Shown here: positions 29,543-49,814 of the stretch, piece after piece
How positions within the stretch are numbered: the first letter of the stretch is position 1
Layout of the letters: every line of letters begins with the position of its first letter
Assembly (NCBI GenBank): GCA_964442185.1
Contig: CAYTWT010000293.1
Coordinates: 17,902-81,901 of the forward strand
Length of the DNA stretch: 64,000 nucleotides
Reading direction: 5' to 3'
DNA from: an uncultured Acidobacteriota bacterium
GTDB lineage: Bacteria; Acidobacteriota; Vicinamibacteria; Fen-336
Program-made: the position numbers and the translations under genes
The notes under the pieces: model-generated
Databases searched by the model: none
Told to the model about the DNA's origin: nothing
What the model saw: only the letters and a program-made list of their open reading frames with translations

Positions 29543-29611
29543 CAAGGGCACTTCGGCCCGTCCGGGCGGCCCTGGTTCGCGCCACGCGGCCTTAGGGAGC
29601 CGCTCCTTTCC

Positions 29612-30508
29612 ATGAAACCGCTTCTCGTCTCCCTCCGGCCGCACCAGTGGACGAAGAACCTCCTGGTCTTCGCTCCGCTGGCGCTGTCCAAGCATCTTTT
29701 CGAGCCGGAGCCGTTCCTGCGCGCGCTCGTCGCCTTTACCCTGTTCTGCGGGCTCTCGGGCGCTGTGTACCTCGTCAACGATGTCGTCGACGTCGAGCGC
29801 GACCGGCTGCATCCGAGAAAGCGGCTGCGGCCCGTGGCGAGCGGTGTGCTCTCCGCGCGGACGGCTTGCACCTTCGCGGGCCTGATTGGGCTTTCGTGCC
29901 TCGGCGCTTCGTTTGCGCTGGGTCCGGCCTTCGGCCTCTCGGCCCTGGCCTATCTGCTGCTGAACCTCGCCTACTCGTTGAAACTCAAGGAGATCGTGAT
30001 CGTGGACGCACTCGCGCTCGCACTCGGTTTCGTGGTGCGAGCGGTCGCGGGCGCCGTGGCGATCGGCGTCGTCTTCAGCGCTTGGCTGCTGATCTGCACC
30101 ATCCTGCTGGCCCTGTTCCTGACCTTTTGCAAGCGACGGCACGAGCTGACCTTGCTCACCGATGCGGCCTCCGAGCATCGCAAGAGCCTCGGGGAGTACA
30201 GCCCGTATCTGCTCGACCAGATGATCGCCGTCGTAACCGCGTCGTGCCTGATGGCGTACGCCTCGTACACGACCGCACCGGAGACGATCGAGAAGTTCCA
30301 GACCGACCGCCTGCCCTGGACCATTCCTTTCGTGCTCTACGGCATCTTCCGTTATCTTTATCTCGTGCACCGGCGGGAGCTGGGCGGCAGCCCGACGGAC
30401 ATCCTCCTGACCGATCTGCCGCTCATCCTCGACGTGGTCCTGTGGGCCCTTGCGATCGTGGTGATCGTGTACACGGCCCAGGGCGCGCCGATGCCGCTGG
30501 GGCGCTGA
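29612..30508 (+). CDS. UbiA-family polyprenyl-phosphate phosphoribosyltransferase (DPPR-synthase / Rv3806c / NoeC-like)
   Basis: N-terminus [15 protein letters not shown] and first Asp-rich motif [23 protein letters not shown] resemble decaprenyl-phosphate phosphoribosyltransferases rather than UbiA/MenA; 8-9 TM. Confidence 0.7.
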
Positions 30509-30509
30509 C

Positions 30510-31058
30510 ATGAGCTTCGAGATCCAGTCGAAAGACGTCGACGTCGAGGCCATCATGCGCGCGATCCGCAAGCGCATTGACGAAAAAAGGCAAGGCCTCT
30601 ACAGCGACGAAGAGATCCGGGAGATCGCCGAGCATCGGCTGGATGCCGTGCTCGACGCGCACGACTTCAATCCCGACTTCATCAAGGACTTCCGTGCGCA
30701 GGCGGCTCGCTGGAACTTCCGCTTCGGGCAAGGCACCGTATACGAGTCGAGCCGCGGGGCGGTGGGCCGGGTCCTGGAGACGATCCGGCGGCTCCTGAAG
30801 CCGATCCAGAAGCTGTTCTGGAACCCGAACCCGATGATTGCGGCGCTCTCCCGCCAGTCGGATCTGAACTCGTACTACGTCCACCTGCTCCACAACCTGG
30901 CAGTCGAGATCACCAAGCTGAACCTCGAGGTGCAGGATCTGCGCAACCGCTGCTTGGAGCTGCAGGGCCGCCTCGAGTTCCAGGTGCGACGCGAGAAGAC
31001 GCTCGAGGGGATGGTCGTCTACCGGGACGACGCGCCGGACGGGCGCCGCACCGAGTAG
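30510..31058 (+). CDS. Conserved hypothetical protein, C-terminal coiled coil, no TM
   Basis: Tight coupling (1-bp gap upstream, 0-bp downstream) inside glycan operon; no recognisable catalytic motif. Confidence 0.5.
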
Positions 31059-32246
31059 GTGAGGCTCGCGTTCGTGGTCCAGCGCTATGGCCTGGAGATC
31101 GCTGGCGGGGCCGAGTACCACTGTCGGCTCATCGCCGAGCACCTCTCGCGGCATGCGAAGGTCGAGGTGTTCACGACCTGCGCCGCCGACTACGTGACGT
31201 GGGCCAACCACTATCCCGAAGGCACCGAGGTCCTGAACGGACTGCCCGTGCACCGCTTCCGGGTCCAGCGCGAGCGCGATACCGTTCGCTTCGCGCGCGC
31301 GAGCCGTGAAGTATTCGAGAGCCCCCGGGGCGAACGCGAGGAGCTCGCGTGGCTCGAAGAGGAGGGGCCGTTCTCGCCCCGGCTCGTGAAGCAGGTGGAA
31401 CGGCGCCGCGCCGACTTCGACAGCTGGGTGTTCTTCTCGTACCGCTACTACACGACCTTCCACGGCCTCAGGGCCGCCCGCGATCGCGCGCTGCTCGTGC
31501 CGACGGCTGAGGACGACGGGGTTTACAAGCTGTCCATCTTTCGGCCACTGTTCCGGATGCCGCGTGCCATTGTCTGGAACAGCGTCGAGGAGAAGACGAT
31601 GATCGAGGCGGTTGCGGCGAACAGCGATGTGCCCGGGGACGTAGTAGGTGTCGGCTCCGCGCTCCCTGCGAGTCTCGATGGCCACGCGTTCCGTTCCGCC
31701 CACGGCGTCGATGGGCCGTTCGTGCTCTATGTCGGCCGGATCGACGAGAACAAGGGCTGCCGCGAGTTGTTCGGGTTCTTTCGGCGCTACCGCGAGGAAA
31801 CCGGCTCGCGCCTGCGCCTGATCCTCATCGGCAAGCCCATCTTGTCGATCCCCGACGATCCCGGCATCGTGCCGCTCGGTTTCCTGCCCGACGCCGAGAA
31901 GTGGAACGCCCTTGCCGCGTGCGAGGCGTTGGTCATGCCCTCGCGCTACGAGAGCCTGTCGATGGTGACGCTCGAGGCGTGGTGGGCCGGCCGGCCGGTG
32001 CTCGCGAACGCGAAGTGCAGCGTGCTGCGAGGCCAGTGCCAACGGTCGAACGCGGGTCTATACTACGCCGGCTACGACGAGTTTCGCGAAGCGCTCGCCG
32101 TGCTCGAGTCCGAGGCGGGCTTGCGCCAGACGCTGGGAGCGAATGGCCGGCGCTATTTCGAACAGAACTATGCCTGGGACGTGATCGAGCGGAAGTATTT
32201 GGCGCTCTTTGCCCAGGCCGGTCGAAGCGCGGGCCAAGGAGCGTAG
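31059..32246 (+). CDS. GT4-family glycosyltransferase (type A paralogue)
   Basis: GT-B fold; N-terminal VVQRYGLEIAGGAEYH and C-terminal E-x7-E region; GTG start abutting previous stop. Confidence 0.8.
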   Translation: MRLAFVVQRYGLEIAGGAEYHCRLIAEHLSRHAKVEVFTTCAADYVTWANHYPEGTEVLNGLPVHRFRVQRERDTVRFARASREVFESPRGEREELAWLEEEGPFSPRLVKQVERRRADFDSWVFFSYRYYTTFHGLRAARDRALLVPTAEDDGVYKLSIFRPLFRMPRAIVWNSVEEKTMIEAVAANSDVPGDVVGVGSALPASLDGHAFRSAHGVDGPFVLYVGRIDENKGCRELFGFFRRYREETGSRLRLILIGKPILSIPDDPGIVPLGFLPDAEKWNALAACEALVMPSRYESLSMVTLEAWWAGRPVLANAKCSVLRGQCQRSNAGLYYAGYDEFREALAVLESEAGLRQTLGANGRRYFEQNYAWDVIERKYLALFAQAGRSAGQGA

Positions 32247-32249
32247 CGT

Positions 32250-33323
32250 GTGATCCGGCGCGTCCCGCAGCTGCTGGCCGCGCTGTCCTACGGCGATGCG
32301 ATCGGCAACGAGGCCCTCGCCATTCAGCGTCACTTGCGTGCGGCCGGTTACGAATCTGACATCTTCGCCGAGCGCGTGCACCCGCGGATGGCGCGCCTGG
32401 CGCGGCCGCTTCACGAGTACCGCGAGGTCTCGTCGCCGGAAACCGTCTGTCTGTTCCATTTCTCGATCGGCAGTGCGGCAGGGCGGATGGCCTTCCACGC
32501 CCCCGATCGGCTCGTCGCCATCTACCACAACATCACGCCCGCCGAGTTCTTCCTGGGCTTCCAGCCGCACCTCGCGGGTCTGTGCTATCACGGGCGGCGG
32601 GAGCTCGCGGCATTTGCTCCGCGCACCGCGCTGGGCCTGGGCGACAGCGAGTTCAACCGGCGCGAGTTGCAGGCTGCCGGGTACCGCCGGACTGAGGTGT
32701 TGCCGATTGTTCTCGATCTCGAACGCTATCGTCAGCCCGCCTCGCCGGTCGTGCGCGGCCTCTACAGCGACGGCCGGAAGAATCTGCTATTCGTCGGCCG
32801 AATCATCCCCAACAAAAAGATCGAGGACCTGCTCCGCGTCTTTGCGATCTATCAACGCTATCTCGAGCCTCGCAGTCGCCTGCTGCTGGTCGGCGAGTCT
32901 CGTGGCTTCGAGCGCTACCAGCGCCGCTTGCGCGAAAGGGCGGCGGCGCTCCGGCTCGACAACGTGGTCTTCGCCGGCCACGTCGACGACGACGACCTGC
33001 GAGCCTACTATTCCGTGGCCGACGTCTTCTTGTGCCTGTCGGAACACGAGGGCTTCTGCGTGCCGCTCGTCGAGGCCATGAACTTCGGCGTGCCTGTCGT
33101 GGCGTTCGACGCAGGGGCCGTGGCTGAGACACTGCGCGGCGGCGGTGTGCTCCTGAAAGAGAAGCAACCGGAGGTCGTGGCGGAGCTGGTCCACCGGGTC
33201 CTGACCGACGCAGCGTTGCGCTCCGCCGTGATGGGCACGCAAGAACGAGCGCTGGCCGAGGTCCGGGCGACCGATTTCGGCGCCCTCCTGCGCGAGCGCC
33301 TCGCGCCGGCCCTGGTCTCATGA
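32250..33323 (+). CDS. GT4-family glycosyltransferase (type B paralogue 1)
   Basis: GT4 C-terminal motif CLSEHEGFCVPLVEAM; GTG start 3 bp after previous stop. Confidence 0.8.
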   Translation: MIRRVPQLLAALSYGDAIGNEALAIQRHLRAAGYESDIFAERVHPRMARLARPLHEYREVSSPETVCLFHFSIGSAAGRMAFHAPDRLVAIYHNITPAEFFLGFQPHLAGLCYHGRRELAAFAPRTALGLGDSEFNRRELQAAGYRRTEVLPIVLDLERYRQPASPVVRGLYSDGRKNLLFVGRIIPNKKIEDLLRVFAIYQRYLEPRSRLLLVGESRGFERYQRRLRERAAALRLDNVVFAGHVDDDDLRAYYSVADVFLCLSEHEGFCVPLVEAMNFGVPVVAFDAGAVAETLRGGGVLLKEKQPEVVAELVHRVLTDAALRSAVMGTQERALAEVRATDFGALLRERLAPALVS

Positions 33324-34402
33324 GCGCCTCTCGCCGGGCGGTCCATCAGCTCCTGGGGGCGCTCCACGCCGGCGACGCCGTGGGGCACGAAGCCCTCGTG
33401 ATCCGCGACACGCTGCGTGGCGCCGGGCATGTTTCAGAGATCTTCGCGGGCTTCATCGACCCGGAGCTCACGGCCGAGGCGCGGCCCCTTTCCGGCTACG
33501 CGGCGGTCTCGGGACCCGAAAGCGTCTGCCTGTTTCACTTCGCGCCGGAGAGCCCCGCCGCGCGGCTCGCGCTGGCCGTGCCCGATCGACTGGCGCTCGT
33601 GTTCCACAACATGACCCCGGCGGCGTTCCTGGCGCGCTTCGATGCCGGCCTGGCGCGCGCTCACATCCTGGGTCTGGGGCAGCTGCGCGCGTTCGCCTCG
33701 CGCGCGCGCCTGGCGCTGGCTCACAGCGATTTCAGTCGTCGTGACCTCGTGAGGGCGGGCTTCGCGGAGCGTGCGCGGGTGGTGCCCTTCGCCGTGGACC
33801 TTCGCGAGAAGCGACCGGCGGCTGCGCCCGTACTCCGCACGCTGTTCGCCGACGGGCACAGGAACCTGCTGTTCGTGGGCCGCATCGCTCCGAACAAGCG
33901 GATCGAGGACCTGTTGCGTGTGTTTGCCGCCTACCGGCGCCTGGCAGGCAAGCGCAGCCGCCTGCTGCTCGTCGGCGACACCACTGGCTTCCCCCGGTAC
34001 GTGCAGAGCCTGCACGCGCTGACCCGAGAGCTGCGCCTCGACGACGTCGTGTTCAGCGGTCACGCGAACGAAGCCGAGCTTCAGGCGTACTACTCCGTGG
34101 CAGCAGCCTTCGTGTGCCTCTCCGAGCATGAAGGCTTCGGCGTGCCCTTGCTCGAAGCCATGCTCTGGGACGTGCCGGTGCTGGCCTTCGACGCGGCGGC
34201 GGTGGCCGAGACGATGCGGGGTGGCGGTGTGCTGCTCCGGGACAAGCGTCCGGCGCTTGTCGCCGAGCTTCTGAACGAGATCCTGAGTCGGCCGGCTCTG
34301 CGCGAAGCCGTGCTCACGACGCAGCGGCGCGCGCTGGCGCAGTGGCGGGCGATCGACTTTGGCGCGCGGCTGCTCGCAGAGCTTCGACCACTGGTGGCGT
34401 GA
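33320..34402 (+). CDS. GT4-family glycosyltransferase (type B paralogue 2)
   Basis: CLSEHEGFGVPLLEAM; ATGA overlap with upstream gene. Confidence 0.8.
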   Translation: MSASRRAVHQLLGALHAGDAVGHEALVIRDTLRGAGHVSEIFAGFIDPELTAEARPLSGYAAVSGPESVCLFHFAPESPAARLALAVPDRLALVFHNMTPAAFLARFDAGLARAHILGLGQLRAFASRARLALAHSDFSRRDLVRAGFAERARVVPFAVDLREKRPAAAPVLRTLFADGHRNLLFVGRIAPNKRIEDLLRVFAAYRRLAGKRSRLLLVGDTTGFPRYVQSLHALTRELRLDDVVFSGHANEAELQAYYSVAAAFVCLSEHEGFGVPLLEAMLWDVPVLAFDAAAVAETMRGGGVLLRDKRPALVAELLNEILSRPALREAVLTTQRRALAQWRAIDFGARLLAELRPLVA

Positions 34403-35502
34403 TGGCGCGCCCCAGCCGCGTCGATCAGTGGGTCCCCGCCCTCCACCGCGGCGACGCGATCGGAGACTCGACGCTGCTGATGCGCGACGCGTTCCGCTCC
34501 TGGGGCCTAGCGGCCGAGGTGTACACGCTCGACGTCGACGACGAAGTTGCCTCCCAGGCCAGGCGCTTCTCGGCCTGGAAGGCGGGCGGCCCGGACGATG
34601 TGGTGATCCTCCACTATGCTCTGCCCTCGCGCCTGAGCGGGGCGTTCCGCGAGTTGCGCTGCCGGCGCGTGCTGCTGCACCACAACATCACGCCGCCAGC
34701 GTTCTATGCGCCGTACGACCCGGAGCTGGCAGGGATCTGTGCGCTGGGGCAAGCGGAAGTCCGCAGCCTCACTGCTCACGCAGAACTGGCGCTGGGCGAC
34801 AGCGAGTGGACCCGTCAGGAGCTCGAACGGATGGGCTTCGCGCGCACCGGCGTGCTGCCGATCCTGCTCGATTTTGAGCGCTACGCGGAAGCCCCCGGGG
34901 CCGTTCTGTCGCGGGCGCTGGGCGACGAACGGGTCAATCTTCTGTTTGTCGGCCGTGTCGCTCCGAACAAGCGCCACGAAGACTTGATCCGCGTCGCATC
35001 CTATTGGAAGCGCTTCATCGCATCGGACGTGCGCCTGCTGCTCGTGGGCAAGCGGCCGCGCCGCGAGACTGGCAATGGCCTGCCGCTGCGCAAGCACTAT
35101 CTCGACGCGCTCCAGTCGTTCCACTACGAGGAAGGCCTGGACGCGACGGAAGTGGTCTTCACGGGCCACGTACCCCACGACGACCTGCTCGCCTGCTACT
35201 CGCGCTCCCGCGTGTTCCTTTCGATGAGCGAACACGAGGGCTTCGGCGTGCCGCTCGTCGAGGCGATGCTGATGAACGTGCCAGTGCTGGCATTTCGCGC
35301 AAGCGCCGTGGGCGACACGCTCGGCGACGCGGGTTTGCAGTTTGGCGAGAAGTGCTTTGCCGAGGTCGCGGAGCTCTGCCATCAGCTTGCGACAGACGAG
35401 TCGTTGCGCGCGAGCGTTCTCGCGGGGCAGCGCCGCCGCCTGGAGGCGTTCGCGCCCGCCGCCGTTGAGGCGACGCTGCGGCGCCACCTGGAGTCGCTGT
35501 GA
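34402..35502 (+). CDS. GT4-family glycosyltransferase (type B paralogue 3)
   Basis: Start ATG overlapping previous TGA (TGATG); SMSEHEGFGVPLVEAM. Confidence 0.8.
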   Translation: MARPSRVDQWVPALHRGDAIGDSTLLMRDAFRSWGLAAEVYTLDVDDEVASQARRFSAWKAGGPDDVVILHYALPSRLSGAFRELRCRRVLLHHNITPPAFYAPYDPELAGICALGQAEVRSLTAHAELALGDSEWTRQELERMGFARTGVLPILLDFERYAEAPGAVLSRALGDERVNLLFVGRVAPNKRHEDLIRVASYWKRFIASDVRLLLVGKRPRRETGNGLPLRKHYLDALQSFHYEEGLDATEVVFTGHVPHDDLLACYSRSRVFLSMSEHEGFGVPLVEAMLMNVPVLAFRASAVGDTLGDAGLQFGEKCFAEVAELCHQLATDESLRASVLAGQRRRLEAFAPAAVEATLRRHLESL

Positions 35503-36701
35503 GCCGCAAGCCGCGGGTCGCGATCGTCATCCAGCGCTACGGAGCGGAGATCGCAGGGGGCTCCGAGTCCCTGGCTCGGGCGGTCGCCGAACGCCTGACG
35601 AGCGATCACGAGGTGACCGTGCTGACGACGTGCGCGCGCGACTACGTGAGCTGGAAGAACGAGCTGCCGGAGGGAGCACAGGGCGAGAACGGCGTCGAGG
35701 TCCTGCGTTTTCCCGTCGAGCAAGAGCGCGATCTGGCGTCGTTCAACCGCATCTCCGAGAGGCTATACGCCGGCGCACGCACTGAGACCGAGGAACTCGA
35801 CTGGCTCCGAAAACAGGGACCCGACGTGCCACGACTCGTCCAGCGCCTCGAAGCGGATCGTGATCGTTACGATGCTGTGTTCTTCTTCACGTACTTGTAC
35901 TTCCCGACGTACTGGGGCTTGCGGGCGGCGGCGGAGCGCTCGATTCTGGTTCCCACCGCTCACGACGAGCCACCGCTGGGGTTTTCGATCTATCGTCGCG
36001 TCTTCGAGGCTCCGCGGGCCTTCGTGTTCTGCTCTTCCCCGGAACGGGAGCTGGTCCGCCGGCGTTTCGAGATTGGCGCGCGACCCGAGGAGGTGGCGGG
36101 GATCGGCGTCGAGGTTCCCGCGGCTGCCGATGTCGAGGGCTTCCGTATCCGCCACGAGGTCCGCGGCCCTTACGCGCTTTACGCCGGCCGCATCGATGCT
36201 GGCAAGGGTTGCGATGAGATGCTCGAATTCTTCGGCCGTTACCGTGCGAGCGTCCGTGGGGGCGTGCAGCTGCTCTTGATCGGGCGACTCGCCATGCCCG
36301 AGCCCCGCGTTCCGGGCGTGCGCTACCTCGGCTACTTGGGCGAGGCGGAGAAGTTCGCGGCGCTGGCTGGGGCGAGCGCCGTCGTCTGCCCCAGCTCCCT
36401 CGAAAGCCTGTCGATCGTCCTGCTCGAGGCAATGGCCTACGGCACTCCGGTTCTTGCAACCGCGCGCTCGGCCGTGCTCGAGGACCATTGCCAGCGCTCG
36501 AACGCGGGGTTGTTCTATCGGGACGCGCCCGAGTTCGTGGAGGCGCTCGACCTCCTGGCCACGCAGCGCGACCTGGCGCGGGCGCTCGGCGAGAACGGGC
36601 GACGCTACGTGACCGAAGGCTATCGTTGGGACGTGGTGATGGAAAAGTACCGCCGGGCGATCGCCGCGGTGCGCACGGCTCCATACCCGCCGAGCTTCTA
36701 A
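35499..36701 (+). CDS. GT4-family glycosyltransferase (type A paralogue 2)
   Basis: N-terminus VIQRYGAEIAGGSESL paralogous to 31059..32246; GTGA overlap. Confidence 0.8.
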   Translation: MSRKPRVAIVIQRYGAEIAGGSESLARAVAERLTSDHEVTVLTTCARDYVSWKNELPEGAQGENGVEVLRFPVEQERDLASFNRISERLYAGARTETEELDWLRKQGPDVPRLVQRLEADRDRYDAVFFFTYLYFPTYWGLRAAAERSILVPTAHDEPPLGFSIYRRVFEAPRAFVFCSSPERELVRRRFEIGARPEEVAGIGVEVPAAADVEGFRIRHEVRGPYALYAGRIDAGKGCDEMLEFFGRYRASVRGGVQLLLIGRLAMPEPRVPGVRYLGYLGEAEKFAALAGASAVVCPSSLESLSIVLLEAMAYGTPVLATARSAVLEDHCQRSNAGLFYRDAPEFVEALDLLATQRDLARALGENGRRYVTEGYRWDVVMEKYRRAIAAVRTAPYPPSF

Positions 36702-37534
36702 CGCAAGGTCCTCAACAGCTCGAGCAACGCCTCGGTCGTCGGGGCGCCCTTGAGGATCGAGGCCGCCCGTGCAATCTGGTTGACGGCTTCCTCGATCGCT
36801 TCGGCGCCAGCCCCTTTTTCGATCTCGCCCTTTGCCCTGGCGTAGTGCTTGTTCACGACGCTCTCGCCCACGGAGCCGAGCAGATTGTTGCAGGCATCGC
36901 GCACTGTGAGCAGCTTCGCGAGCAGTTCGCCGCTCGCGGGGCCCCCGGCGGCCAGCCTGCCCGCGGCCCCCGGCTTTGCGGCGGTCCCGGCGAGAACGGT
37001 TTCCCGCAGCCGGATCAGCCCGGTGGCGATCAGGCCGTAGAGGATCTTGGCGGCGTCGAACACGGAAAGGCCGCTCGCCAGCGCGATCTGCTTGATCGAG
37101 CGCGTGGCATCGATCTTCGACAGGACCAACCACTCGCTCGTGTTCAGGTTGATCTGGCCCTCTCGCGTTTCCTGCACTACGAACTCCGGCACCAGTTCGG
37201 TCGAAGGGATCTTCTTGGAGAGCACCCGCCACTCGTCGAGCCGCCGCGCCGCCTCCATGAGCAGGTTGGTGTTGCTCTTGGAGATGGTGCGTAGCTCCGT
37301 CGAGATGCCGGGCTCGAACTTGAAGTCACCCCGGCTCCAGATCGCGAGCGCATAGACCGCTTCCTCACCCGTGGCGTCTTCGAGCTGGGCATGGACGATC
37401 TTCCCGTCGTTCAGGTAGATCTGGCCCTTGAGCGCGCCGTCGGTGAGGTGGAACAGGCCCGTTTTCCCACTGACGCTTATGAGCTGGATGATGTCCGGTA
37501 GATGAAGTTCCGCGAGCGAGCCCTGGAAGGCCAT
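36698..37534 (-). CDS. DUF4388-domain protein
   Basis: N-terminal GSLAELHLPDIIQLISVSGKTGLFHL...GKIVHA DUF4388 signature; last gene of HK-RR operon. Confidence 0.75.
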   Translation of the reverse strand: MAFQGSLAELHLPDIIQLISVSGKTGLFHLTDGALKGQIYLNDGKIVHAQLEDATGEEAVYALAIWSRGDFKFEPGISTELRTISKSNTNLLMEAARRLDEWRVLSKKIPSTELVPEFVVQETREGQINLNTSEWLVLSKIDATRSIKQIALASGLSVFDAAKILYGLIATGLIRLRETVLAGTAAKPGAAGRLAAGGPASGELLAKLLTVRDACNNLLGSVGESVVNKHYARAKGEIEKGAGAEAIEEAVNQIARAASILKGAPTTEALLELLRTLR

Positions 37535-37613
37535 ATCAGAAGGCTCTAAACCTCAGAATTGTCTGCCAATTAGAAGAGGCGAGGTTATCAAGGCGCAAAG
37601 GCGCCTGTCAAGA

Positions 37614-39068
37614 TCAGGCCGGCGTTGGCTTGGCCTGGCTCAGTTCCACTTCACGGCTTGCGGGGTGGCCGCTGCGCCTCTCGCGCTCGCGGGGAATCGC
37701 GATGTTGTGACGCTTGATCATCTCGTTCAGAGTCGTGGGCTTCAGGCCCAGGAGCCGGGCGGCTTCCTTCTGCACGCCGCGGGTCGACTCCAGGGTCGAC
37801 TCGATCAGACGCCGCTCGAAGCTCGCGATCACGTCCTTGAAGCTGATGCCCTCGGGCGGCACAGTCAGGTGCGGCACGTGGAAAACCGGGGCGCTACGCA
37901 CGTGGTCGGGGATGATGTCGCGCTCGATTTGCATGTCGGTGGTGAGCACGACGCCACGCTCGATCACGTTTTCGAGCTCGCGCACGTTGCCCGGCCAGTC
38001 GTAGTCCATCAGCACCTGAAGCGCTCCGGGTGCGACACCCGTCACGGTCTTGCCGTTCTCGCCCGCATACTTGTCGACGAAGTGCATGGCGAGGGCCGGG
38101 ATATCCTCTTTGCGCTGGCGCAGTGGCGGGAGCTGGATCGCGATGACGTTCAGGCGGTAGTAGAGATCCTCGCGAAAACGGCCCTCTTCCACAGCGCGGC
38201 GCAGGTCGATGTTGGTCGCGGCCACGATCCGCACGTCGACCTTGACCGTCTCGACGCCACCGAGGCGCATGAACTCACGCTCCTGCATCACGCGTAGCAG
38301 CTTGGCCTGGGTCTCGAGCGGGATGTTGCCGATTTCGTCGAAGAAGAGCGTGCCCTTGTCCGCCAGCTCGAAGAGGCCCTTCTTTGCGTACACCGCGCCG
38401 GTGAAGGCGCCCTTCACGTGGCCGAAGAGGTTGGACTCGAGCAACTCATGGGGAAGGCTTCCGGAGTTGACCACGATGAAGGGCCGTTCAGCACGCGGGC
38501 TGTTGGCGTGGATAGCCTTGGCCACCAACTCCTTGCCGGTGCCGCTTTCGCCGACCACCAGGATCGTCGAGCGCGAGGGAGCCGCCTGCGAGATCAGACC
38601 AAAGACCTGCTGCATCCGCTGGCTCTTCCCGATGATCTCGGTAAAACGCGCCTGGTCGCGCAAAGCGGTGCGCAGTTGGCGGTTCTCGTCCTGCAGATGC
38701 CGCTGCTTGAGCGCGTTCCGCAGGATGTGCAATACCTCTTCGTGCTTGAAGGGCTTCGTGACGTAGTCGAAGGCGCCCTTCTTCATGGCGGTGATCGCGG
38801 TCTCGACGGAGGCATAGGCGGTGATCATCAGCACGACGAGATCGGGATCCACGCGCTTCAGCTCCTCGAGCACCTCGAGGCCGCCAAGCTCCGGCAGCAT
38901 CACGTCCACGATGGCCGCGTCGAAGCCGGCCTTGCGGGCGAGTGAGAGGCCTTCGACCCCAGTCTCGGCCAGCGTCACCCGGTAGCCCGACTGGGTCAGC
39001 AGTGTCGTGAGCACGTCGCGCATCACCTCTTCGTCGTCGACGACGAGGATGGATTCGCCCTTGCTCAC
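37614..39068 (-). CDS. Sigma-54-dependent response regulator (NtrC family: REC + AAA+ + HTH)
   Basis: REC Asp (IVDVMLPE), GESGTGKE Walker A, GAFTGA sigma-54 contact motif, C-terminal Fis-type HTH. Confidence 0.9.
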   Translation of the reverse strand: MSKGESILVVDDEEVMRDVLTTLLTQSGYRVTLAETGVEGLSLARKAGFDAAIVDVMLPELGGLEVLEELKRVDPDLVVLMITAYASVETAITAMKKGAFDYVTKPFKHEEVLHILRNALKQRHLQDENRQLRTALRDQARFTEIIGKSQRMQQVFGLISQAAPSRSTILVVGESGTGKELVAKAIHANSPRAERPFIVVNSGSLPHELLESNLFGHVKGAFTGAVYAKKGLFELADKGTLFFDEIGNIPLETQAKLLRVMQEREFMRLGGVETVKVDVRIVAATNIDLRRAVEEGRFREDLYYRLNVIAIQLPPLRQRKEDIPALAMHFVDKYAGENGKTVTGVAPGALQVLMDYDWPGNVRELENVIERGVVLTTDMQIERDIIPDHVRSAPVFHVPHLTVPPEGISFKDVIASFERRLIESTLESTRGVQKEAARLLGLKPTTLNEMIKRHNIAIPRERERRSGHPASREVELSQAKPTPA

Positions 39069-41893
39069 CGTTGGGCGGCCTCGGCTACGAGGGCAGCCGG
39101 AAGTGCGACCTGGAACGTCGTGCCCGTGCCCGGCGCCGACTCCACGAAGATCGCGCCACCGTGCTCCTGGACGATGCCGTAGGAAACCGAGAGGCCGAGG
39201 CCGGTTCCGCGCCCGATGCCCTTGGTCGTGAAGAACGGGTCGTAGATGCGCTTGACGTCCTCACGCTTGATGCCGTGACCGGTGTCGCGCACCTCCACGA
39301 TCACCGTGTCGTCGTCGTCGGCGCGCGTCGCGATCGTGAGCCAGCCGCCCTTGGGCATGGCATCGCGGGCGTTCAGAATCAGGTTGAAGAACACCTGCTG
39401 AATGCGGTTCTCGTTGCCACGAATCGCAGGCAGGTCCTCGGCCATCTCCCGCACCACGCGGATGCGCGCCTTGTCCAGCTGGTGCTCGAGCAGCGACAAC
39501 ACCTCGAGCAGCGTCTTGTTCACGTCGAGGATTTCGAACTCGGAGCTCGAGGAGCGCGCGAAGTTCAAGAGGTTGTTGATGATCCTGGCCGCGCGGAAAG
39601 TCTGCTTCTCGATCTTATCGAGGAGCGGGAAGCGCAGGTCTTCGGGTTGCACCTGTTCTTTCAGCATCTGGGTGTAGGACGAGATGCCGGTGAGCGGGGT
39701 GTTCACCTCGTGGGCGACACCCGCCGCGAGCAGGCCGATCGAGGCCATCTTCTCCGAGTGCTGCAGCTGTTCTTCGAGGCGCACCCGCCCCGTGACGTCC
39801 TCGAGGATCAGCACCGTTCCGTGGCGCTCGCCCGAGACGACCTCGAAGGGCGCGATCGAGACGTTCACCATCAGGCTCCGGCCGTCGGCTGCCGGTAGGT
39901 GCAGCTTGTAAATGTGCGCGATCTCCTCGTGATCCTCGAGCACCAGGCTCCCGCGCAGCGCTTCGAGAAACGCGGCCGGGAAGATCTCGTCCAGGGTGCG
40001 TCCAAGTACCTCCCCGCGCTTCCGGCCGTAGAGCGATTCCATCGCCTTGTTCCAGCGCGCCACGGCGCCGTCGAGGTCGAGGACCAGGATCCCCGAGTCC
40101 ATGCTTTCGAGGATGTTCTGGTTGTATTCCGTGAGACGCTGCAACTCCTCGGCCTTCTCGCGCAGGCTCTTGTAGAGCCGGCCATTCATGAACGCCGTGG
40201 CGGCCTGACCGGCGAGGGCCTGGAGGACGTCGACCTCCTCACTGTTCAGCGTATCGAAGCCGTCCTTGCGGCCGATACCCAGTACCGCGATCACCTCGCC
40301 CTTCACCCGGCAAGGGAAGTAGTAGACGAAATCGAGCGGCCCGGCTTCGGGGAACGACTCGCCCGTGGCCTCGGCGTTCACGGGCTCGCCATGCGCAAGA
40401 CGCCGCAGCAGCGCGCCCCCGCGCGGCAGCCGTACGGTCTCGTTTTCCGGTGCGCAACCGCGCGACTCGAAAATCGAGAACGAGCCGTCGGCCTCCGGCA
40501 GGAAGGCGGCCACCGACGAGACGCGCAGCGCGGTGCCGACGCCTTCGAGCAGCCGAGCGGTCATCGAGTGCAGATCCAGGTCGGAGTTGAGGTCTTGCGA
40601 GAGGCGCAGCAGGGCCCGGCGTGGGCTCTCCCGCTCGCGGTAGAGCAGCTTGTCGATTACGTCCTGGATGCGGCTCTTGACGGGCGGGAAGAGCAACACC
40701 ACGACCAGCGTCGAGAGAATCGCGATGACGGTGACGTGGGGCTCCTCGTCGCCCGTGACGAACGAACCGAGCAGGCCGACGACCAGCAGGCAGATGCCGA
40801 CGATCGCGGCCGTGGCGAGGACGTAGACGAGCGAGCGTCGGAAGATCAGTTCGACGTCCATCAGCCGGTGTTTCACGACCGCGTAGGCGAGCGACAACGG
40901 GATGAGCGCCAGCGGGATGTAGCCAGCCAGCTCCATCGCAAAGCGCGGCTCACGCCCCAGCGCGAAGGGGATCGCGTAGAACAGGAAGAACGGGAGCACC
41001 CCGGCGCCGGTGCCCCACACCAGCCACTTCATCTGCTTGCGCGCCGTAAGGGAGCGGGTCTTGCGGTAGGAATCAAGCAGGATGCCGAAGGAGACCGCGA
41101 ACAGGAAGCCGAAGTAGAATGGCTTGCTGCGATCGATCGCCGCGGTGATCCGCCACAGCACCTCGCCCCCGGGCGTCGTCACGAACAGCACCTGGCTCGC
41201 GACGGCGGCGCCCGCCAAGGCCAGCGCGGGCATGTACGCGGCGGGCACGAGCCAGGCGCGGGACGAGGGCAGCCGCCTTTCCGGGAACGAGATGCAGAAA
41301 TGCAGGAAAACGACTGGCAGCAACAGGATCGCCAGGTGGTCGGTCCACAGCAGCGTCCAGTCGGCAAGGTTGAGCCGCCCCGTGTAGGACGTTGAGTACA
41401 TCAGGAAGAACAGCAGGCAGATCGCGTAGAAGTGGAGCGCCGCGCGGTCGGGCGGCCGGCGCAGCATCACGATCGTGCCGACGATCAAGCTGAAGAAGCC
41501 GACCAGCGAGAGATAGTAGAAGAGCGTTACGTTGCCCTTGCTGAGCGGCTTCACCGTGACTTCGAGCGAGCGACGCTCGTCGGCGCGCAGCAGCGAGTAC
41601 TGGACGTGGTCCCCGGCGGCGCGCCGCGCCAACCGCGCCTGGACCTGCGTTTGGGCGAGCACCTCGTCGCCATCGAGTGCTAGGAGCACGTCGCCGACCC
41701 GCACTCCGGAGAGGGCAGCGGGTCCACCGGATGCCACGCGAGCGGCGACAACGCCGGCGGCCCCGTTCTTCCAGAACACACCGTCGTCGAGCAGCGTCCA
41801 GGTCGCTTTCAGGAAGATGTTGTAGACCCCGAGGCTGGTGAGCAGCAGTGCCACCGCAAGAACAGCGAAGTTGCGGACCCGGGACCCCTTCAT
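39065..41893 (-). CDS. Sensor histidine kinase: N-terminal TM + periplasmic PDZ + ~8-TM block + GAF + PAS + HisKA + HATPase_c
   Basis: Start at ATG MKGSRVRNFAVLAV; PDZ-like GVRVGDVLLALDGDEV; H-box HEVNTPL; N, G1, G2 boxes; overlaps RR start by 4 bp. Confidence 0.85.
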   Translation of the reverse strand: MKGSRVRNFAVLAVALLLTSLGVYNIFLKATWTLLDDGVFWKNGAAGVVAARVASGGPAALSGVRVGDVLLALDGDEVLAQTQVQARLARRAAGDHVQYSLLRADERRSLEVTVKPLSKGNVTLFYYLSLVGFFSLIVGTIVMLRRPPDRAALHFYAICLLFFLMYSTSYTGRLNLADWTLLWTDHLAILLLPVVFLHFCISFPERRLPSSRAWLVPAAYMPALALAGAAVASQVLFVTTPGGEVLWRITAAIDRSKPFYFGFLFAVSFGILLDSYRKTRSLTARKQMKWLVWGTGAGVLPFFLFYAIPFALGREPRFAMELAGYIPLALIPLSLAYAVVKHRLMDVELIFRRSLVYVLATAAIVGICLLVVGLLGSFVTGDEEPHVTVIAILSTLVVVLLFPPVKSRIQDVIDKLLYRERESPRRALLRLSQDLNSDLDLHSMTARLLEGVGTALRVSSVAAFLPEADGSFSIFESRGCAPENETVRLPRGGALLRRLAHGEPVNAEATGESFPEAGPLDFVYYFPCRVKGEVIAVLGIGRKDGFDTLNSEEVDVLQALAGQAATAFMNGRLYKSLREKAEELQRLTEYNQNILESMDSGILVLDLDGAVARWNKAMESLYGRKRGEVLGRTLDEIFPAAFLEALRGSLVLEDHEEIAHIYKLHLPAADGRSLMVNVSIAPFEVVSGERHGTVLILEDVTGRVRLEEQLQHSEKMASIGLLAAGVAHEVNTPLTGISSYTQMLKEQVQPEDLRFPLLDKIEKQTFRAARIINNLLNFARSSSSEFEILDVNKTLLEVLSLLEHQLDKARIRVVREMAEDLPAIRGNENRIQQVFFNLILNARDAMPKGGWLTIATRADDDDTVIVEVRDTGHGIKREDVKRIYDPFFTTKGIGRGTGLGLSVSYGIVQEHGGAIFVESAPGTGTTFQVALPAALVAEAAQR

Positions 41894-42054
41894 GCGCTTA
41901 GACTGAATCCACCCGGCTGCAATCGGCATGCCGCAATCGAGGCGGACTCGCACGCGTAAGGCGCTGATATCACACAGACTTCCCCCCTCATTCGGGGCTG
42001 CGAATCCGGATTCACGGAATCGAAGTTCATTGCGTTGGAGTGCCAGTCCGATCA

Positions 42055-42083
42055 AGAAAAAAGCGAGGCCCGCGGCGCCTCGC
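42055..42083 (-). terminator. Rho-independent terminator downstream of outer-membrane protein gene (stem GCGAGGC/GCCTCGC, then UUUUUUCUU on - strand)
   Basis: 7-bp GC stem + U-tract read on minus strand, 48 nt after the stop at 42131. Confidence 0.4.
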
Positions 42084-42130
42084 TGCTTCCTCTTCGGCCG
42101 GCTCGCTCTGCGAACGGGCCTCCTTTGCCC

Positions 42131-43864
42131 TTAGAAGCGAACCGAGATCCCTCCCATCAGGCGCGTCGGCGGGTTCAGGACAGCCATTTCGTCTAGCATG
42201 CCCCCCTCCGCCGTTTCGTAGAACAGGTTCCTCACGGCGACCAGCAGGTCCCAGTCGGCTCGCGTCAGATCGCCCAGAAAGGGAAGTCCCTGGCTGAGTT
42301 GCACGTCGAACCGCGTGTTACGGCTTGTCTCCGCTTCGCCGGCCTCAGGCCGGATGAAGTTCAGGCGGTAGAAGGCGACAAGGCGGGTGTCGGTTGGTTC
42401 GACGAATGTCTCCACGCGAGCCGTCAGGTCGTGGAAGCGGCCGTCTGCGATCGCCAGCGGCGCGGCCTCGAAAGCGACGCCCGGCCCTGCCAGGTCGCGA
42501 TGAAGTCGCCCGAACGAGTAGGCGACCGAGCCGCGAATCACCCGGCCGACACCGTGCCCGAGGTCGATCGTGACACCCTGCGTGGCCATGGCGCCACGGT
42601 TGTCGATGCGCAGGCTTTGCGACGTTTCCGAGCCACCGAAGGTGTTGACCAGCTGGTCGGTCGTCGATTCACGGAACGCCCGCAGACCGATACGGCCGGC
42701 GCCGAAGCGCTGATCGACACCCATCGCGTATCGCACCAGGTGCTCGGGCGCCAAGCTGCCTTCGAGATCGGCATACACGATCGCCGGCGCCACGGACAGT
42801 GTCGAGAGCGTCAGGAGGTCGCCGCCCGGAACGATGCTGCGTTCCTCGGCCGAGGCCAGGAGGGTCGTGGTGGCACCGGCCTCGAACTCGAGAGCCAGCA
42901 GCGGATCGATGTGGTTCTGGTCGCCGGTCACGAAACCCACGTAGGAGTGCCGCGCACCAATCGTAGCCGTGACCTGGTCGCTCATCGTCCAGCGGTCTTC
43001 GACGAACAGTGCGCCGATCGTTCCCGCCTGGAGCCGCACTTCGGGTTCGAGGCCGTTCATGGGACGCACGAAGCGCGTTCCGTAGCCTGCGCCGGTTCGG
43101 ATCTGGTGGCCGCCACCCGGCTCCAGCAGGAACTCTGCAGCCATGCGCCAAGTCGTGTCCTCGCTCTCCGCCACGAGCCCGCCCAGCGTGAAGCTCGCGG
43201 AATCCCCGAGCTTGCCTTGGAGGCGCAACACGCCGGTACCGGAGAGCAGGTTTCCCGCCGCGGTGTCGTCGCCCTGGGCACCGAGGCTGTGCGCGTTTGC
43301 GACCACCTCCATGGACCCACCGAGTTCCGGCAGCCAGGGCGAAGCGCCCCGTTCGGTTTCGGACGATACGGCATCGCGTGGCGCCACTACCGCGCCCCTG
43401 TCCTCGAGCACCGAGCGCGTCTTGTGCCGCAGCAGCCACGTCCATTCGCGCGCATTGTCCGCGCCTTCCTTCTCGCTCAGCTCGCCGAAGCCCGGCAGGC
43501 TGAGCGACAGGATCGCGCCCTGATTGGGGAACACGGTGACGCGCTGTGCTTGGGCCTGCTTCAGGCCCCGGCCCACTGCGCGCACGGTGTACGAGCCGGC
43601 CGGAAGCGACGGCAACATGAAGTGCCCAGCCTCGTCGGAGAAGGCTATCAGTCCCCCGCCACGCATGCCCTTCGCGAAGAACGAAACCAAGGCGCCCGAG
43701 ACGGGCGTGCCGCGGCTGTCCTCGACCCAGCCGATGACACTCCCCGCTGCCGATTCTTCGGCGTCGGCCGGGCACAGGGGAAGGGCCAAGAGCAGAAGTG
43801 TGGTGCTCCCGACGGCGGCCAGAGTCGATCGGATCTTTCTCACGGGTTCCAAAGGATCGCCCAC
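42131..43864 (-). CDS. Outer-membrane beta-barrel protein with N-terminal carboxypeptidase-regulatory-like (CarbopepD_reg) domain
   Basis: Signal peptide; GSVIGWVEDSRGTPVSGALVSF...DEAGHFMLPSLPAGSYTV; ends in aromatic F (beta-barrel C-term). Confidence 0.7.
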   Translation of the reverse strand: MGDPLEPVRKIRSTLAAVGSTTLLLLALPLCPADAEESAAGSVIGWVEDSRGTPVSGALVSFFAKGMRGGGLIAFSDEAGHFMLPSLPAGSYTVRAVGRGLKQAQAQRVTVFPNQGAILSLSLPGFGELSEKEGADNAREWTWLLRHKTRSVLEDRGAVVAPRDAVSSETERGASPWLPELGGSMEVVANAHSLGAQGDDTAAGNLLSGTGVLRLQGKLGDSASFTLGGLVAESEDTTWRMAAEFLLEPGGGHQIRTGAGYGTRFVRPMNGLEPEVRLQAGTIGALFVEDRWTMSDQVTATIGARHSYVGFVTGDQNHIDPLLALEFEAGATTTLLASAEERSIVPGGDLLTLSTLSVAPAIVYADLEGSLAPEHLVRYAMGVDQRFGAGRIGLRAFRESTTDQLVNTFGGSETSQSLRIDNRGAMATQGVTIDLGHGVGRVIRGSVAYSFGRLHRDLAGPGVAFEAAPLAIADGRFHDLTARVETFVEPTDTRLVAFYRLNFIRPEAGEAETSRNTRFDVQLSQGLPFLGDLTRADWDLLVAVRNLFYETAEGGMLDEMAVLNPPTRLMGGISVRF

Positions 43865-43990
43865 GTACCCTGCGAAGACCCACGCTAGCAGCGGGCGAGG
43901 GGGCTGTCAACCCGGTTTTCGGCCCCTCCGGGAGAGGCCTTACGCTATGCTAGGCGTCGCTCGGAAGGCTCTCGCTTCAGAAGGCAAGCC

Positions 43991-47954: not shown

Positions 47955-48023
47955 CCGCTGGCCGACGGCTCCGCCGTCCTCGCGACGCTTCTCGCCTATC
48001 TCGCCTTCGCGGCGCTCGCGATC

Positions 48024-49814
48024 GTGGGCCCCGGCGTCGCGCTGCAGCGCCTGCTGCGGCTGGCGACCGACGTGGCGCTGGTCGTCCCGATCGGCCTGAC
48101 CTTCTCCGCACTCTCGGCCTGGGCGGCATTCGCCTCAGGCCGGCACTGGCTGTTTCCGGCGCTGGTCCTTGCGGTGGACGCGACCCTGTTGCTGCCGCTC
48201 GGCCCGTGGCGGCGCTCCCCGGGCCCGTCGCTGCGGGGCGCGGCACCTGCCGCCCTGGCCATCGTCGGGGTGCTGGCTGTGACCCAGTACCCGCTGAACC
48301 GGATCGACGCGAACGGCGACTTCCTGCTGGACGACCTCGAGCGCATCGACACGGCGTTCCACGTAGCCGTCACCTGGGAGCTCACGAACTCGTGGCCGCC
48401 GCAGGTGCCGGGCCTCGCGGGCGTCCCGCTTCACTATCACCTCGGGCCGCATCTGATCCGGGCGGCGGCATGGCGCTGGGCGGGGATCACGCCCTACGAC
48501 GCGATGTATCGCTTCGACGTGACGCTCTGGGCGATCGGCCTGGTACTGGCCCTGCGCGCGGCGGCACGGGCGCTCGGTGGCGGTCGCTTCGCGCTCGCAC
48601 TCGCCGGCTTCAGTCCGCTGCTCGCGGATTTCTCGTTCGTCTTCGCCGGGCAGCCGAGCGCACGCTGGTGGCCCGAGTTGATGGGCGGAAACCTGCTGCT
48701 GTCCTTGATCTTCGCGAACTCCCTCGTCCCGGCGCTGGCCCTCACGCTGGGCGTGGTCGTCGCGCTCGGCCGCGCACGCGCGGGCGAGGGGCGCGGATGG
48801 CTGGTGCTGGCCGGGGTGCTCGCAGCCGCTGTCCCGTTCTTCAAGATCTTCCTGGCCGCACCGCTCGCCGCGGGGCTGCTGGTCGCGCTGGTGGTGTGCG
48901 GCAGCGCGGAGTCGCTACTGGCGGTCGCGGCGTCTTGTCTGGTCGCGACGGTCGCGCTCGTGCTCGGTTCCGGAACGCCGCTCGAGATCCTGCTCGACCC
49001 ATTGGCGCCCGTGGCTCACACGCGGCAACTGCTCGGCCTGCCGCCGCTCGAAGGCGCGCGGCTCGCAAGCTTTGCCGCGCCCTGGCTCGCCGCGGCTTTG
49101 GGCTTGCGTCTGCTGGCCTTGCCGGGCGCACTGCGCGCCCTCGGGTCGCGCTCGGTGGCCCTGGTCGTGCTGGGGACGATGGCGCTTGTCGGTTGGCCGA
49201 TCGCCCTGCTGCTCCGGCTCAGCGCGGACCGGGAGTTCAACGAGGCGGTCTACTTTACGGTTCAAAGCGGCGCGCTGCTCTGGCTCTTCGTGGCCCTGGC
49301 CCTCGAGCGTCTCGCGCTTTCGGGCATCCGGCCAGGGCTGCTGGTCGCGATCGCCGCGGCCCTCTCGCTGCCCGCCACGGCCGAACTGGTGATTCGCAAG
49401 GCGCTCTCGCCACCCGATGTCGTTCCCGCGCGAGTGCTCGAGGCGATGGCTGCCCTCGCCGGCGACTCTCGCCCGGGCGACGTCGTGCTGATGCGCCCCT
49501 ATTCGCGCTTTCCGCCACCGCCGGTCGTGTTCGTGCGGCGGCGCCTGCCGTACACGATCTACCTGCCGTACATGCGCCAGTTCGCTACGCCGGCGCTGTT
49601 GCACGCACGTTCGGAGCTGCTGCGCAGTTTTTTCCGAAGTAGCGACCCTACCGAGGCGGGCCGCCTTGCGGCTGAGCTTCACGCGCGCCACGTGTTCGTC
49701 CACGGGCCGCAGCCGATCGGCCCCGGAGCTCGCGCGATCCTCGATCCCATCTATTTGAAACAGGACACCGGGCTGTACCGGATTCGCTTCCCGAACTCGC
49801 CCGTACCGGAGTGA
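48024..49814 (+). CDS. Polytopic integral membrane protein (>=12 TM) with C-terminal soluble domain; possibly GT-C-like glycosyltransferase (speculative)
   Basis: GTG start in track; upstream in-frame hydrophobic codons back to eno stop suggest N-terminus may be longer. Confidence 0.5.
   Translation: MGPGVALQRLLRLATDVALVVPIGLTFSALSAWAAFASGRHWLFPALVLAVDATLLLPLGPWRRSPGPSLRGAAPAALAIVGVLAVTQYPLNRIDANGDFLLDDLERIDTAFHVAVTWELTNSWPPQVPGLAGVPLHYHLGPHLIRAAAWRWAGITPYDAMYRFDVTLWAIGLVLALRAAARALGGGRFALALAGFSPLLADFSFVFAGQPSARWWPELMGGNLLLSLIFANSLVPALALTLGVVVALGRARAGEGRGWLVLAGVLAAAVPFFKIFLAAPLAAGLLVALVVCGSAESLLAVAASCLVATVALVLGSGTPLEILLDPLAPVAHTRQLLGLPPLEGARLASFAAPWLAAALGLRLLALPGALRALGSRSVALVVLGTMALVGWPIALLLRLSADREFNEAVYFTVQSGALLWLFVALALERLALSGIRPGLLVAIAAALSLPATAELVIRKALSPPDVVPARVLEAMAALAGDSRPGDVVLMRPYSRFPPPPVVFVRRRLPYTIYLPYMRQFATPALLHARSELLRSFFRSSDPTEAGRLAAELHARHVFVHGPQPIGPGARAILDPIYLKQDTGLYRIRFPNSPVPE

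Follow-up and report, generated by a model that had tools for sequence, protein, structure and literature searches.

Two-component systems of the NtrC class, such as NtrB/NtrC, ZraS/ZraR and AtoS/AtoC, consist of a HisKA/HATPase kinase and an activator with REC, AAA+ (GAFTGA) and HTH_8 domains. A pair of the same architecture is encoded in the 64-kb stretch of DNA (G+C ~67%) analysed here, which is referred to as the window. The DNA is that of a soil acidobacterium, and its genes have their homologues in metagenome-assembled members of the Vicinamibacteria. This class belongs to the Acidobacteriota, which rank with the most abundant bacteria in soil but whose signalling has, to our knowledge, hardly been studied. 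No description of a PDZ domain as the input domain of a histidine kinase was found in the literature searched, nor anything relevant on sigma-54 signalling in Acidobacteria. In this study, we propose, at a probability of roughly 0.6, that an outer-membrane protein, a kinase with a PDZ domain, ten transmembrane (TM) helices and GAF and PAS domains, and an autoregulating NtrC-type sigma-54 activator form a lineage-wide core signalling module of Acidobacteriota. Judged by its domains, the pair appears to be an NtrC-class two-component system with an uncharacterised but widespread sensor variant.

The kinase-activator pair and its sigma-54 promoter

The coordinates of all main features are listed in Table 1. 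The GTG start of the activator gene overlaps the kinase stop codon by 4 bp (GTGA), and the two genes are predicted to be one translationally coupled unit. A first-pass annotation of this DNA had described a three-gene operon with 4-bp overlaps that also included a gene for a standalone PATAN/DUF4388 protein. The kinase/regulator overlap was indeed found, whereas the regulator and DUF4388 genes are separated by a gap of 79 nt, which holds a conserved sigma-70-type promoter.

The activator matches the Pfam families REC (PF00072, 102 bits), Sigma54_activat (PF00158, 237 bits), HTH_8 (PF02954, 42 bits) and AAA_lid_14, and GAFTGA, Walker A (GESGTGKE) and Walker B (DEIG) motifs are readable in its translation. 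It thus has the domains that define an NtrC-class enhancer-binding response regulator, as had been proposed from the GAFTGA motif. Neither protein of the pair reaches the cut-off of any NCBIfam equivalog model. The kinase scored 305 against a cut-off of 646 for AtoS, 175 against 479 for ZraS and 135-136 against 300 for PrsK; the regulator scored 484 against 714 for AtoC, 437 against 559 for NtrC, 417 against 760 for ZraR and 390 against 503 for PrsR.

A total of 55 related loci were collected from a scan of one genome per species. Close relatives, sharing 49-95% identity with the N-terminal module of the kinase, account for 52 of them, and the other three are short or distant. A sigma-54 (-24/-12) promoter is predicted directly upstream of the kinase gene, whose start was placed at ATG 41893 because the upstream ATG 41929 falls within this promoter. 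The exact lineage motif GGCAY-N5-TTGCW occurs only twice in the window, each time correctly placed upstream of a gene. A GGCA-N6-NTGC element was found upstream of the kinase in 46 of the 46 relatives with enough upstream sequence, and its flanks have diverged. In a two-strand scan of related loci totalling 917 kb, the exact motif was matched 48 times. The kinase gene directly follows 46 of these matches, and the other two lie about 460 nt upstream of it; none was found elsewhere or on the other strand. The looser consensus TGGCAC-N5-TTGCW with up to two mismatches gave 22 matches in the whole window against 21 expected and is uninformative alone. Only the exact lineage motif, taken with its conservation, was informative for the sigma-54 call. 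The link to sigma-54 suggested by the first-pass annotation was therefore sound, but the promoter lies upstream of the pair itself.

Two candidate activator boxes were found further upstream. The core of box 1, TCCAA, is present at -118..-95 in 30 of 47 sequences (mean 0.7 and maximum 3 after shuffling), and GGATYC or TGGAT, corresponding to box 2, is present at -90..-65 in 39 of 47 (shuffle mean 1.3, maximum 5). Perfect TTGGAT-N5-ATCCAA palindromes occupy the corresponding place in two distant loci, L057 and the AT-rich L060. The kinase-regulator unit thus appears to stand behind a conserved sigma-54 promoter and two position-fixed boxes built of TTGGAT/ATCCAA half-sites, which together probably reflect positive autoregulation of the pair. 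Searches of the window for TTGGAT-N5-ATCCAA and ATCCAA-N4-TTGGWT with up to three mismatches gave chance-level counts, the sole relevant match being the kinase upstream region. Dense GGATYC clusters were not found in the window, and its own enhancer is weak. An integration host factor (IHF)-like site, WATCARNNNNTTR, at 41957-41969 is present in only 4 of the 47 sequences, so conservation is not claimed for it.

Table 1. Positions of genes and predicted regulatory elements in the 64-kb window.
Feature	Position	Strand	Remarks
Sensor histidine kinase	39065..41893	-	942 aa; ATG 41893; TM1, PDZ, nine TM helices, GAF, PAS, HisKA, HATPase_c
NtrC-type sigma-54 activator	37614..39068	-	484 aa; GTG start; REC, AAA+ with GAFTGA, HTH_8
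Sigma-54 (-24/-12) promoter of the pair (predicted)	41918..41932	-	GGCATgccgaTTGCA; ends 25 nt before kinase ATG
Upstream activator box 2 (candidate)	42002..42013	-	Perfect palindrome GAATCCGGATTC; ~75 nt upstream of -24 GG
Upstream activator box 1 (candidate)	42031..42044	-	Contains TCCAA; ~105 nt upstream of -24 GG
Intrinsic terminator after the outer-membrane protein gene (predicted)	42054..42084	-	8-bp GC-rich stem, then TTTTTTCTT; terminator scan
Outer-membrane protein gene	42131..43864	-	Probable start GTG 43843; signal peptide, CarboxypepD_reg, helix, TonB-receptor-like barrel
Sigma-70-type promoter of the outer-membrane protein gene (predicted)	43882..43910	-	TTGACA-N15-TGCTAGCGT; footprinting
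Standalone PATAN/DUF4388 protein	36698..37534	-	278 aa; neighbour of the pair
Sigma-70-type promoter of the PATAN gene (predicted)	37582..37611	-	TTGACA-N15-TTGATAACCT; starts 3 nt past the regulator stop
Conserved leader box	37545..37574	-	CTAATTGG...; immediately downstream of the PATAN -10 element; no Rfam match
Sigma-70-type promoter of the STAS-UbiA-GT4 operon (predicted)	29138..29167	+	TTGACA-N15-TGTGATAGCGT; upstream of 29207

Conservation within and beyond the class

The related loci share a conserved order of enolase, glgC-like, cyclase (opposite strand), outer-membrane protein, kinase, regulator and PATAN genes and a converging GT4 operon. In every Vicinamibacteria locus, the kinase gene is directly preceded by the outer-membrane protein gene, and the PATAN gene immediately follows the regulator in all loci covering that position. 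The surroundings are core-genome synteny (enolase, glgC-like, purD and pta), and adjacency to the pair counts for little because the entire neighbourhood is syntenic.

Eight distant family members, with a kinase identity of about 30-47%, were further inspected. A sigma-54 response regulator is encoded immediately downstream of the kinase in all eight. In six of them, the gene immediately upstream is a homologue of the window's outer-membrane protein gene or encodes a 505-696-aa CarboxypepD_reg protein ending in ...GG-x-x-h-x-F; in L058, the gene call upstream has 296 aa and covers the barrel only. Five of the eight loci have a recognisable sigma-54 promoter, in which GGTAT, TGGAAT, TGGAAC, TGGCAC or TGGCAT is followed by N5-TTGC, and a sixth has an imperfect one; the forms TGGCAC/TGGCAT-N5-TTGC were found in L062 and L063. 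The PATAN gene is absent next to the pair in seven of the eight, and L057 is the sole distant locus with one nearby, at 3.6 kb past the regulator. Only L058 has glycan genes near the pair, in the form of a reduced STAS/GT4 cluster. Because the outer-membrane protein, kinase and regulator are kept in distant loci while the PATAN and glycan genes are mostly absent, the evolutionarily stable module, traced down to ~30% kinase identity, appears to be these three together with their own enhancer and promoter.

GWxTD-domain proteins adjoin this triad in L057, where tetratricopeptide (TPR) repeats are also present, and in L059. The GWxTD gene of L057 overlaps the regulator stop by 4 bp. These neighbours may be lineage-specific accessory genes or targets.

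The PDZ sensor kinase

The PDZ domain of the kinase (PDZ_2, PF13180) was detected by Pfam at residues 42-114 with an E value of 8e-11 and 42.5-43.5 bits against a cut-off of 27. The further Pfam domains are GAF (440-567), PAS (592-705), HisKA (721-782) and HATPase_c (826-933). With PF00512 at 51.7 bits and PF02518 at 93.5 bits, the protein belongs to the class I (HisKA) histidine kinases, and the H-box AHEVNTPL and the motifs NLILNARDAM, DTGHGI and GTGLGL are readable in its translation. The domains given in the first-pass annotation for this kinase were confirmed, as were its domain calls for all three proteins in the Pfam annotation it had called for, and the kinase length was corrected from 943 to 942 aa.

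TM1 spans residues 9-28, the PDZ domain about 33-118 and nine TM helices about 122-405. Hydropathy analysis gave ten hydrophobic segments, with all five Arg/Lys-rich loops on the cytoplasmic (N-terminal/kinase) side. From hydropathy and the positive-inside rule, the N-terminus and the kinase core are predicted to be cytoplasmic and the PDZ domain to face the periplasm; ten TM helices are the only parity that places the PDZ outside and the kinase core inside. The arrangement of TM1, PDZ and multiple further helices had been recognised before, but the number of helices after the PDZ is nine, ten in total, instead of about eight. A periplasmic PDZ sensor watching the envelope is plausible.

An exhaustive search with the N-terminal 441 aa gave 234 clusters (50% identity) at E<=1e-30. 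The members are mostly of 940-1000 aa and align in a single stretch over residues 10-441. The PDZ motifs DDGVxW and GxPAxxAGhxxGDhhhxhNG are kept in the family down to 27% identity, and the strongest-conserved motifs of the TM bundle are FPERR, YRxTRSxTARKQxKW and KHRLMDVELIFRR. The window kinase does not match PF16927 (HisKA_7TM) even at E<=10, and 4 of 15 aligned relatives do, with a best E value of 7e-7. The TM bundle and HisKA_7TM are probably remote homologues. In databases, many copies of this kinase appear as split or truncated gene calls (250-650 aa), including some on long contigs, and automated annotation therefore often separates a 'PDZ domain-containing protein' from a 'PAS domain S-box protein'.

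The outer-membrane protein encoded upstream

The outer-membrane protein matches PF13620 (CarboxypepD_reg) at residues 43-123 and, at 32.9 bits against a cut-off of 27, PF00593 at residues 239-451. Neither a Plug (PF07715) nor an STN domain was detected by Pfam, and none of the NCBIfam models match the protein. An AlphaFold2 (AF2) model, with a predicted local distance difference test (pLDDT) score of 64.5, consists of a sandwich at 40-123 and about 18-20 barrel strands over 209-576; residues 146-215, where a plug would lie, are disordered. The best Foldseek matches of the model are the barrels of the TonB-dependent transporters Cir, FrpB and PqqU (E ~1e-6). With its weak PF00593 match, no Plug and 577 aa, the protein differs from TonB-dependent receptors, which are defined by a 22-strand barrel and a plug. 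Typical receptors of that kind are longer.

The C-terminus ...GGISVRF is nearly invariant, with VRF in 45 of 53 orthologues, and the C-terminal peptide of the window protein is PPTRLMGGISVRF. Whole-length identity across the class is only ~45%. An invariant amphipathic helix, RExxWLxRHKxRSVLE (aa 140-154; window ~43400-43450, minus strand), stands between CarboxypepD_reg and the barrel and is followed by a low-confidence linker of ~60 residues at the usual plug position.

The gene appears to have a sigma-70-type promoter, found by phylogenetic footprinting like the other promoters of this type in Table 1. The pattern TTGACN-N14-17-TGnTAnnnT is present upstream of it in 39 of 43 relatives, and none of the 43 has a sigma-54 motif there. 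A GC-rich hairpin with a T-run, comparable to the terminator predicted in the window, is visible after the gene in many relatives.

Proposed mechanism and the site of sensing

In the proposed mechanism, the PDZ domain would be held in the periplasm against the membrane, between TM1 and TM2, and act as the input domain. It would receive a signal from the co-conserved outer-membrane protein in one of two ways, either by contacting the periplasmic N-terminal CarboxypepD_reg/helix region or by binding the invariant C-terminal ...GGISVRF of unassembled protein. The 9-TM bundle would relay the signal to GAF, PAS and the kinase core, and the phosphorylated activator would bind the upstream boxes and turn on its own operon, as positive autoregulation, and a regulon elsewhere in the genome. 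The trans-envelope route as such, in which a plug-less TonB-receptor-like protein signals to the periplasmic PDZ of a 10-TM kinase that drives a sigma-54 regulon, is previously undescribed and is put forward only tentatively.

Several points weigh against the module and its mechanism. Gene neighbourhood is the sole evidence linking the outer-membrane protein to the PDZ, and conserved position the sole evidence tying the regulator to the boxes; box 1 of the window itself is degenerate. The outer-membrane protein gene and the kinase gene are separated by a terminator and use different sigma factors, and in two distant loci, L061 and the P0247 contig, the kinase gene has no outer-membrane protein gene upstream of it. 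A terminal Phe with GG-x-x-V-x-F is a generic outer-membrane assembly signal and denotes no specific ligand. The AF2 models of the outer-membrane and PATAN proteins are of only moderate confidence (pLDDT 65-69). The promoter counts (46, 47, 42 and 43 sequences) come from phylogenetically non-independent relatives and overstate the number of independent observations, which the distant and compositionally different loci mitigate.

The 9-TM bundle or the cytoplasmic GAF and PAS domains could also be the real sensors, with the PDZ no receiver and the outer-membrane protein gene a mere syntenic neighbour. The bundle, which would be HisKA_7TM-like, holds the most strongly conserved motifs, some relatives match PF16927, and kinases with this bundle but without PDZ exist; the outer-membrane protein gene having its own promoter and terminator would fit as well. 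However, the family-wide retention of the PDZ motifs argues against this explanation, and the outer-membrane protein gene stays upstream where all other neighbours have changed. We consider it rather unlikely.

The PATAN/DUF4388 gene downstream

The PATAN protein matches PF14332 (DUF4388) at residues 4-103 with 93.5 bits against a cut-off of 25. Residues 104-278 match no Pfam family and no REC domain was found, so the protein is standalone, as had been reported, and lacks the C-terminal REC that accompanies PATAN in PatA-type response regulators. Most DUF4388 proteins have no other domain or a single REC domain (bioRxiv 10.1101/2021.06.11.447907). The earlier statement that DUF4388 is usually fused to receiver domains is accordingly only half correct. 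Across the class, sequences of this family align with 73-90% identity to the window protein. In an AF2 model (pLDDT 68.9), PATAN (1-118) is followed by a winged-helix-like part (132-177), a Pro/Ala-rich linker and a 4-helix bundle (200-277), and Foldseek found no solved structure at E<=0.001.

The sigma-70-type PATAN promoter was found in 34 of 42 relatives, and CTAAYTN stands at a fixed distance from the -10 element in 27 of 42. The leader box is followed by an (A/G)GG(A/T/C)(C/T)TTA(G/A) element. The box may serve as an operator or as a leader element.

In Vicinamibacteria, the PATAN protein might serve the pair as a functional output or a partner, for example as an MglB/longin-like switch or a type IV pilus motor adaptor, expressed by regulator-dependent read-through. 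Its constant place downstream of the regulator, its very strong conservation and a terminator scan that detected none between the two genes favour this, and PATAN domains of cyanobacterial (Synechocystis) regulators bind PilB1 and PilC (bioRxiv 10.1101/2021.06.11.447907). Against it stand the gene's own conserved promoter, its absence from most distant loci, a window that contains no pilus, MglA or MglB genes, and structural similarities drawn from a model of pLDDT 69 with large root-mean-square deviation. Such a partnership is unlikely. The PATAN protein is probably outside the conserved core of the pair and would be at most a lineage-specific accessory.

The second sigma-54-type motif and the activator of the pair

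The other exact sigma-54-type motif of the window, GGCATcttgaTTGCA, is located at 17569-17583 (+), 23 nt upstream of a gene for a small membrane GGDEF diguanylate cyclase (17606..18367, +), which lies between ftsE-like (16806..17456) and udk / ftsX-like (19044..19937) genes. Its promoter has no TCCAA/GGATYC boxes, and a different activator is therefore probably in control. The GGDEF gene was considered as a target of the same regulator and judged unlikely, since the upstream boxes are missing.

This promoter shows that other activators operate in the genome, and a different enhancer-binding protein could likewise drive the promoter of the pair, which would then be downstream in a cascade and not autoregulated. 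The lack of a direct tie between the neighbouring regulator and the boxes would allow this. However, the boxes travel with the operon from the 67% GC Vicinamibacteria to the AT-rich distant relative, so that a cis-site co-evolving with the adjacent regulator is the simplest explanation, and autoregulation is common among NtrC-class pairs. Control by another activator is thus quite improbable, and positive autoregulation remains the preferred reading.

The glycan operon and the layout of transcription units

The glycan operon (29207..36701, +) encodes an STAS anti-sigma-antagonist-like protein, UbiA, a 182-aa protein and five GT4 proteins. UbiA scores 282 bits with the NCBIfam model for decaprenyl-phosphate phosphoribosyltransferase, above its cut-off of 234, which suggests that the operon makes a polyprenyl-phosphoribose-derived glycolipid or glycan and not a generic exopolysaccharide. 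The DUF4388 stop overlaps the last GT4 stop by 4 bp (36698-36701), as had been observed before. The convergent overlap is not conserved, with gaps of 17 bp to ~4.6 kb in the relatives.

The pair had been proposed as the regulator of this operon, and a missing sigma-54 promoter upstream of 29207 had been named beforehand as the finding that would speak against it. No GG-N10-GC sigma-54 motif was found before 29207 in the window or in six relatives. Instead, the sigma-70-type promoter is present there in the window and in 6 of the 6 relatives reaching that far, and across the 917 kb of related loci no exact sigma-54 motif lies in or near glycan genes. We infer that sigma-54 does not directly control the neighbouring glycan operon. 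The full original model, a three-gene operon in which a PDZ envelope-stress kinase and its activator drive STAS-UbiA-GT4 from a sigma-54 promoter with DUF4388 as dedicated partner, draws on the adjacency of pair, PATAN and glycan genes across Vicinamibacteria, the converging STAS/GT4 cluster of L058 and the PATAN gene of L057, but is very unlikely given the promoters just described, no TTGGAT/ATCCAA site elsewhere in the window, a PATAN gene with its own promoter, the absence of PATAN and glycan genes beside the pair in most distant relatives and the equal synteny of the surrounding housekeeping genes.

Since the outer-membrane protein gene, the PATAN gene and the STAS operon have separate promoters, the region appears to be divided into four transcription units, among which the kinase-regulator unit would be the only sigma-54-dependent one. 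Transcription is predicted to start near 41907 for this unit, near 37575 for the PATAN gene, near 43875 for the outer-membrane protein gene and near 29174 for the STAS operon. The glycan-operon link and the three-gene-operon reading do not hold, and the outer-membrane protein is a new candidate partner.

A shared pattern, TTGACA-N14-17-TGnTA(G/A/C)(C/G)(C/G/T)T, was observed at 43882-43910, 37582-37611 and 29138-29167 and is class-wide (loci L002-L053). It has an extended -10 with a hexamer far from TATAAT and stands upstream of three unrelated genes. It looks like a housekeeping promoter consensus of Vicinamibacteria. A generic sigma-70 scan gave no promoter in the region, because the -10 of this lineage (TAnnnT after TGn) is too unlike TATAAT.

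Other observations in the window are as follows. An open reading frame (ORF) tail at ~27800-28083 (+) encodes a four-CxxC zinc-ribbon protein (…CVDCEKPF…CRECK…CSQCGK…CEDCF…). A homologue lies directly upstream of the STAS gene in L041 and L052, and in the window the two are separated by an inserted pta gene (28037..29101, minus strand). A 619-aa ORF at 47955..49814 (+) has a strong codon-position G+C bias and no Pfam or NCBIfam match. No Rfam family matches 36500-42300.

Comparison with known systems

All of the related Vicinamibacteria loci that were collected contain the module, and its sensor half is represented by hundreds of 50%-identity clusters. The PDZ input and the co-conserved outer-membrane protein offer a concrete, testable model of envelope or surface monitoring, and the conserved promoter and enhancer motifs provide a handle for regulon prediction in any complete genome.

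Several described systems resemble parts of the locus. The PATAN protein has an N-terminal PATAN/DUF4388 domain above the Pfam cut-off in common with PatA, PixG, PixE and the standalone PATAN proteins of Myxococcus and Geobacter. It differs from the PatA type by the lack of REC, by a predicted winged helix and 4-helix bundle without Pfam match, and by the absence of pilus or MglAB genes nearby in the window. As to the HisKA_7TM membrane-sensor kinases, FPExR and RxRLxDhE recur both in the TM bundle and in HisKA_3-type kinases, which align over 85% of the module, whereas the window kinase has nine helices after the PDZ and the PDZ inserted between TM1 and TM2. PrsK/PrsR, which are associated with PEP-CTERM/exosortase systems, likewise combine a multi-TM kinase with GAF and a sigma-54 response regulator near polysaccharide genes. 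However, only the kinase core of the window protein matches TIGR02916 (135-136 bits against 300), the regulator stays below TIGR02915 (390 against 503), PrsK has no PDZ, and the window has no exosortase gene.

In genetic organization, the pair resembles the autoregulated operons of the NtrB/NtrC class, with a predicted -24/-12 promoter, inverted-repeat candidate enhancer sites about 75-110 nt upstream and translational coupling. The pair differs from them in falling below every curated NCBIfam equivalog cut-off, in a sensor module (TM1, predicted periplasmic PDZ, nine TM helices, GAF and PAS) present in no characterised member, and in the half-site TTGGAT, compared with the NtrC site TGCACC.

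On the input side, the module resembles DegS/RseP of the sigma-E pathway in its membrane-anchored, predicted periplasmic PDZ of the HtrA/PDZ_2 type and in the gene-linked outer-membrane protein with an aromatic x-F end. Unlike DegS/RseP, it has neither a protease domain nor an anti-sigma factor, and its output would be phosphotransfer to a sigma-54 activator. It also resembles the cell-surface signalling by TonB-dependent transducers of the FecA-FecR-FecI type, where a TonB-receptor-type barrel with an extra periplasmic N-terminal domain is encoded beside an inner-membrane transducer and an activator. The N-terminal domain in the window is CarboxypepD_reg and not the STN of FecA, and no Plug was detected; the transducer is a histidine kinase in place of the anti-sigma FecR, with sigma-54 in place of the extracytoplasmic function (ECF) sigma factor FecI. 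If the tentative trans-envelope route exists, it would be core to Acidobacteriota and would correspond, as a two-component system, to the DegS/sigma-E and FecA/FecR pathways.

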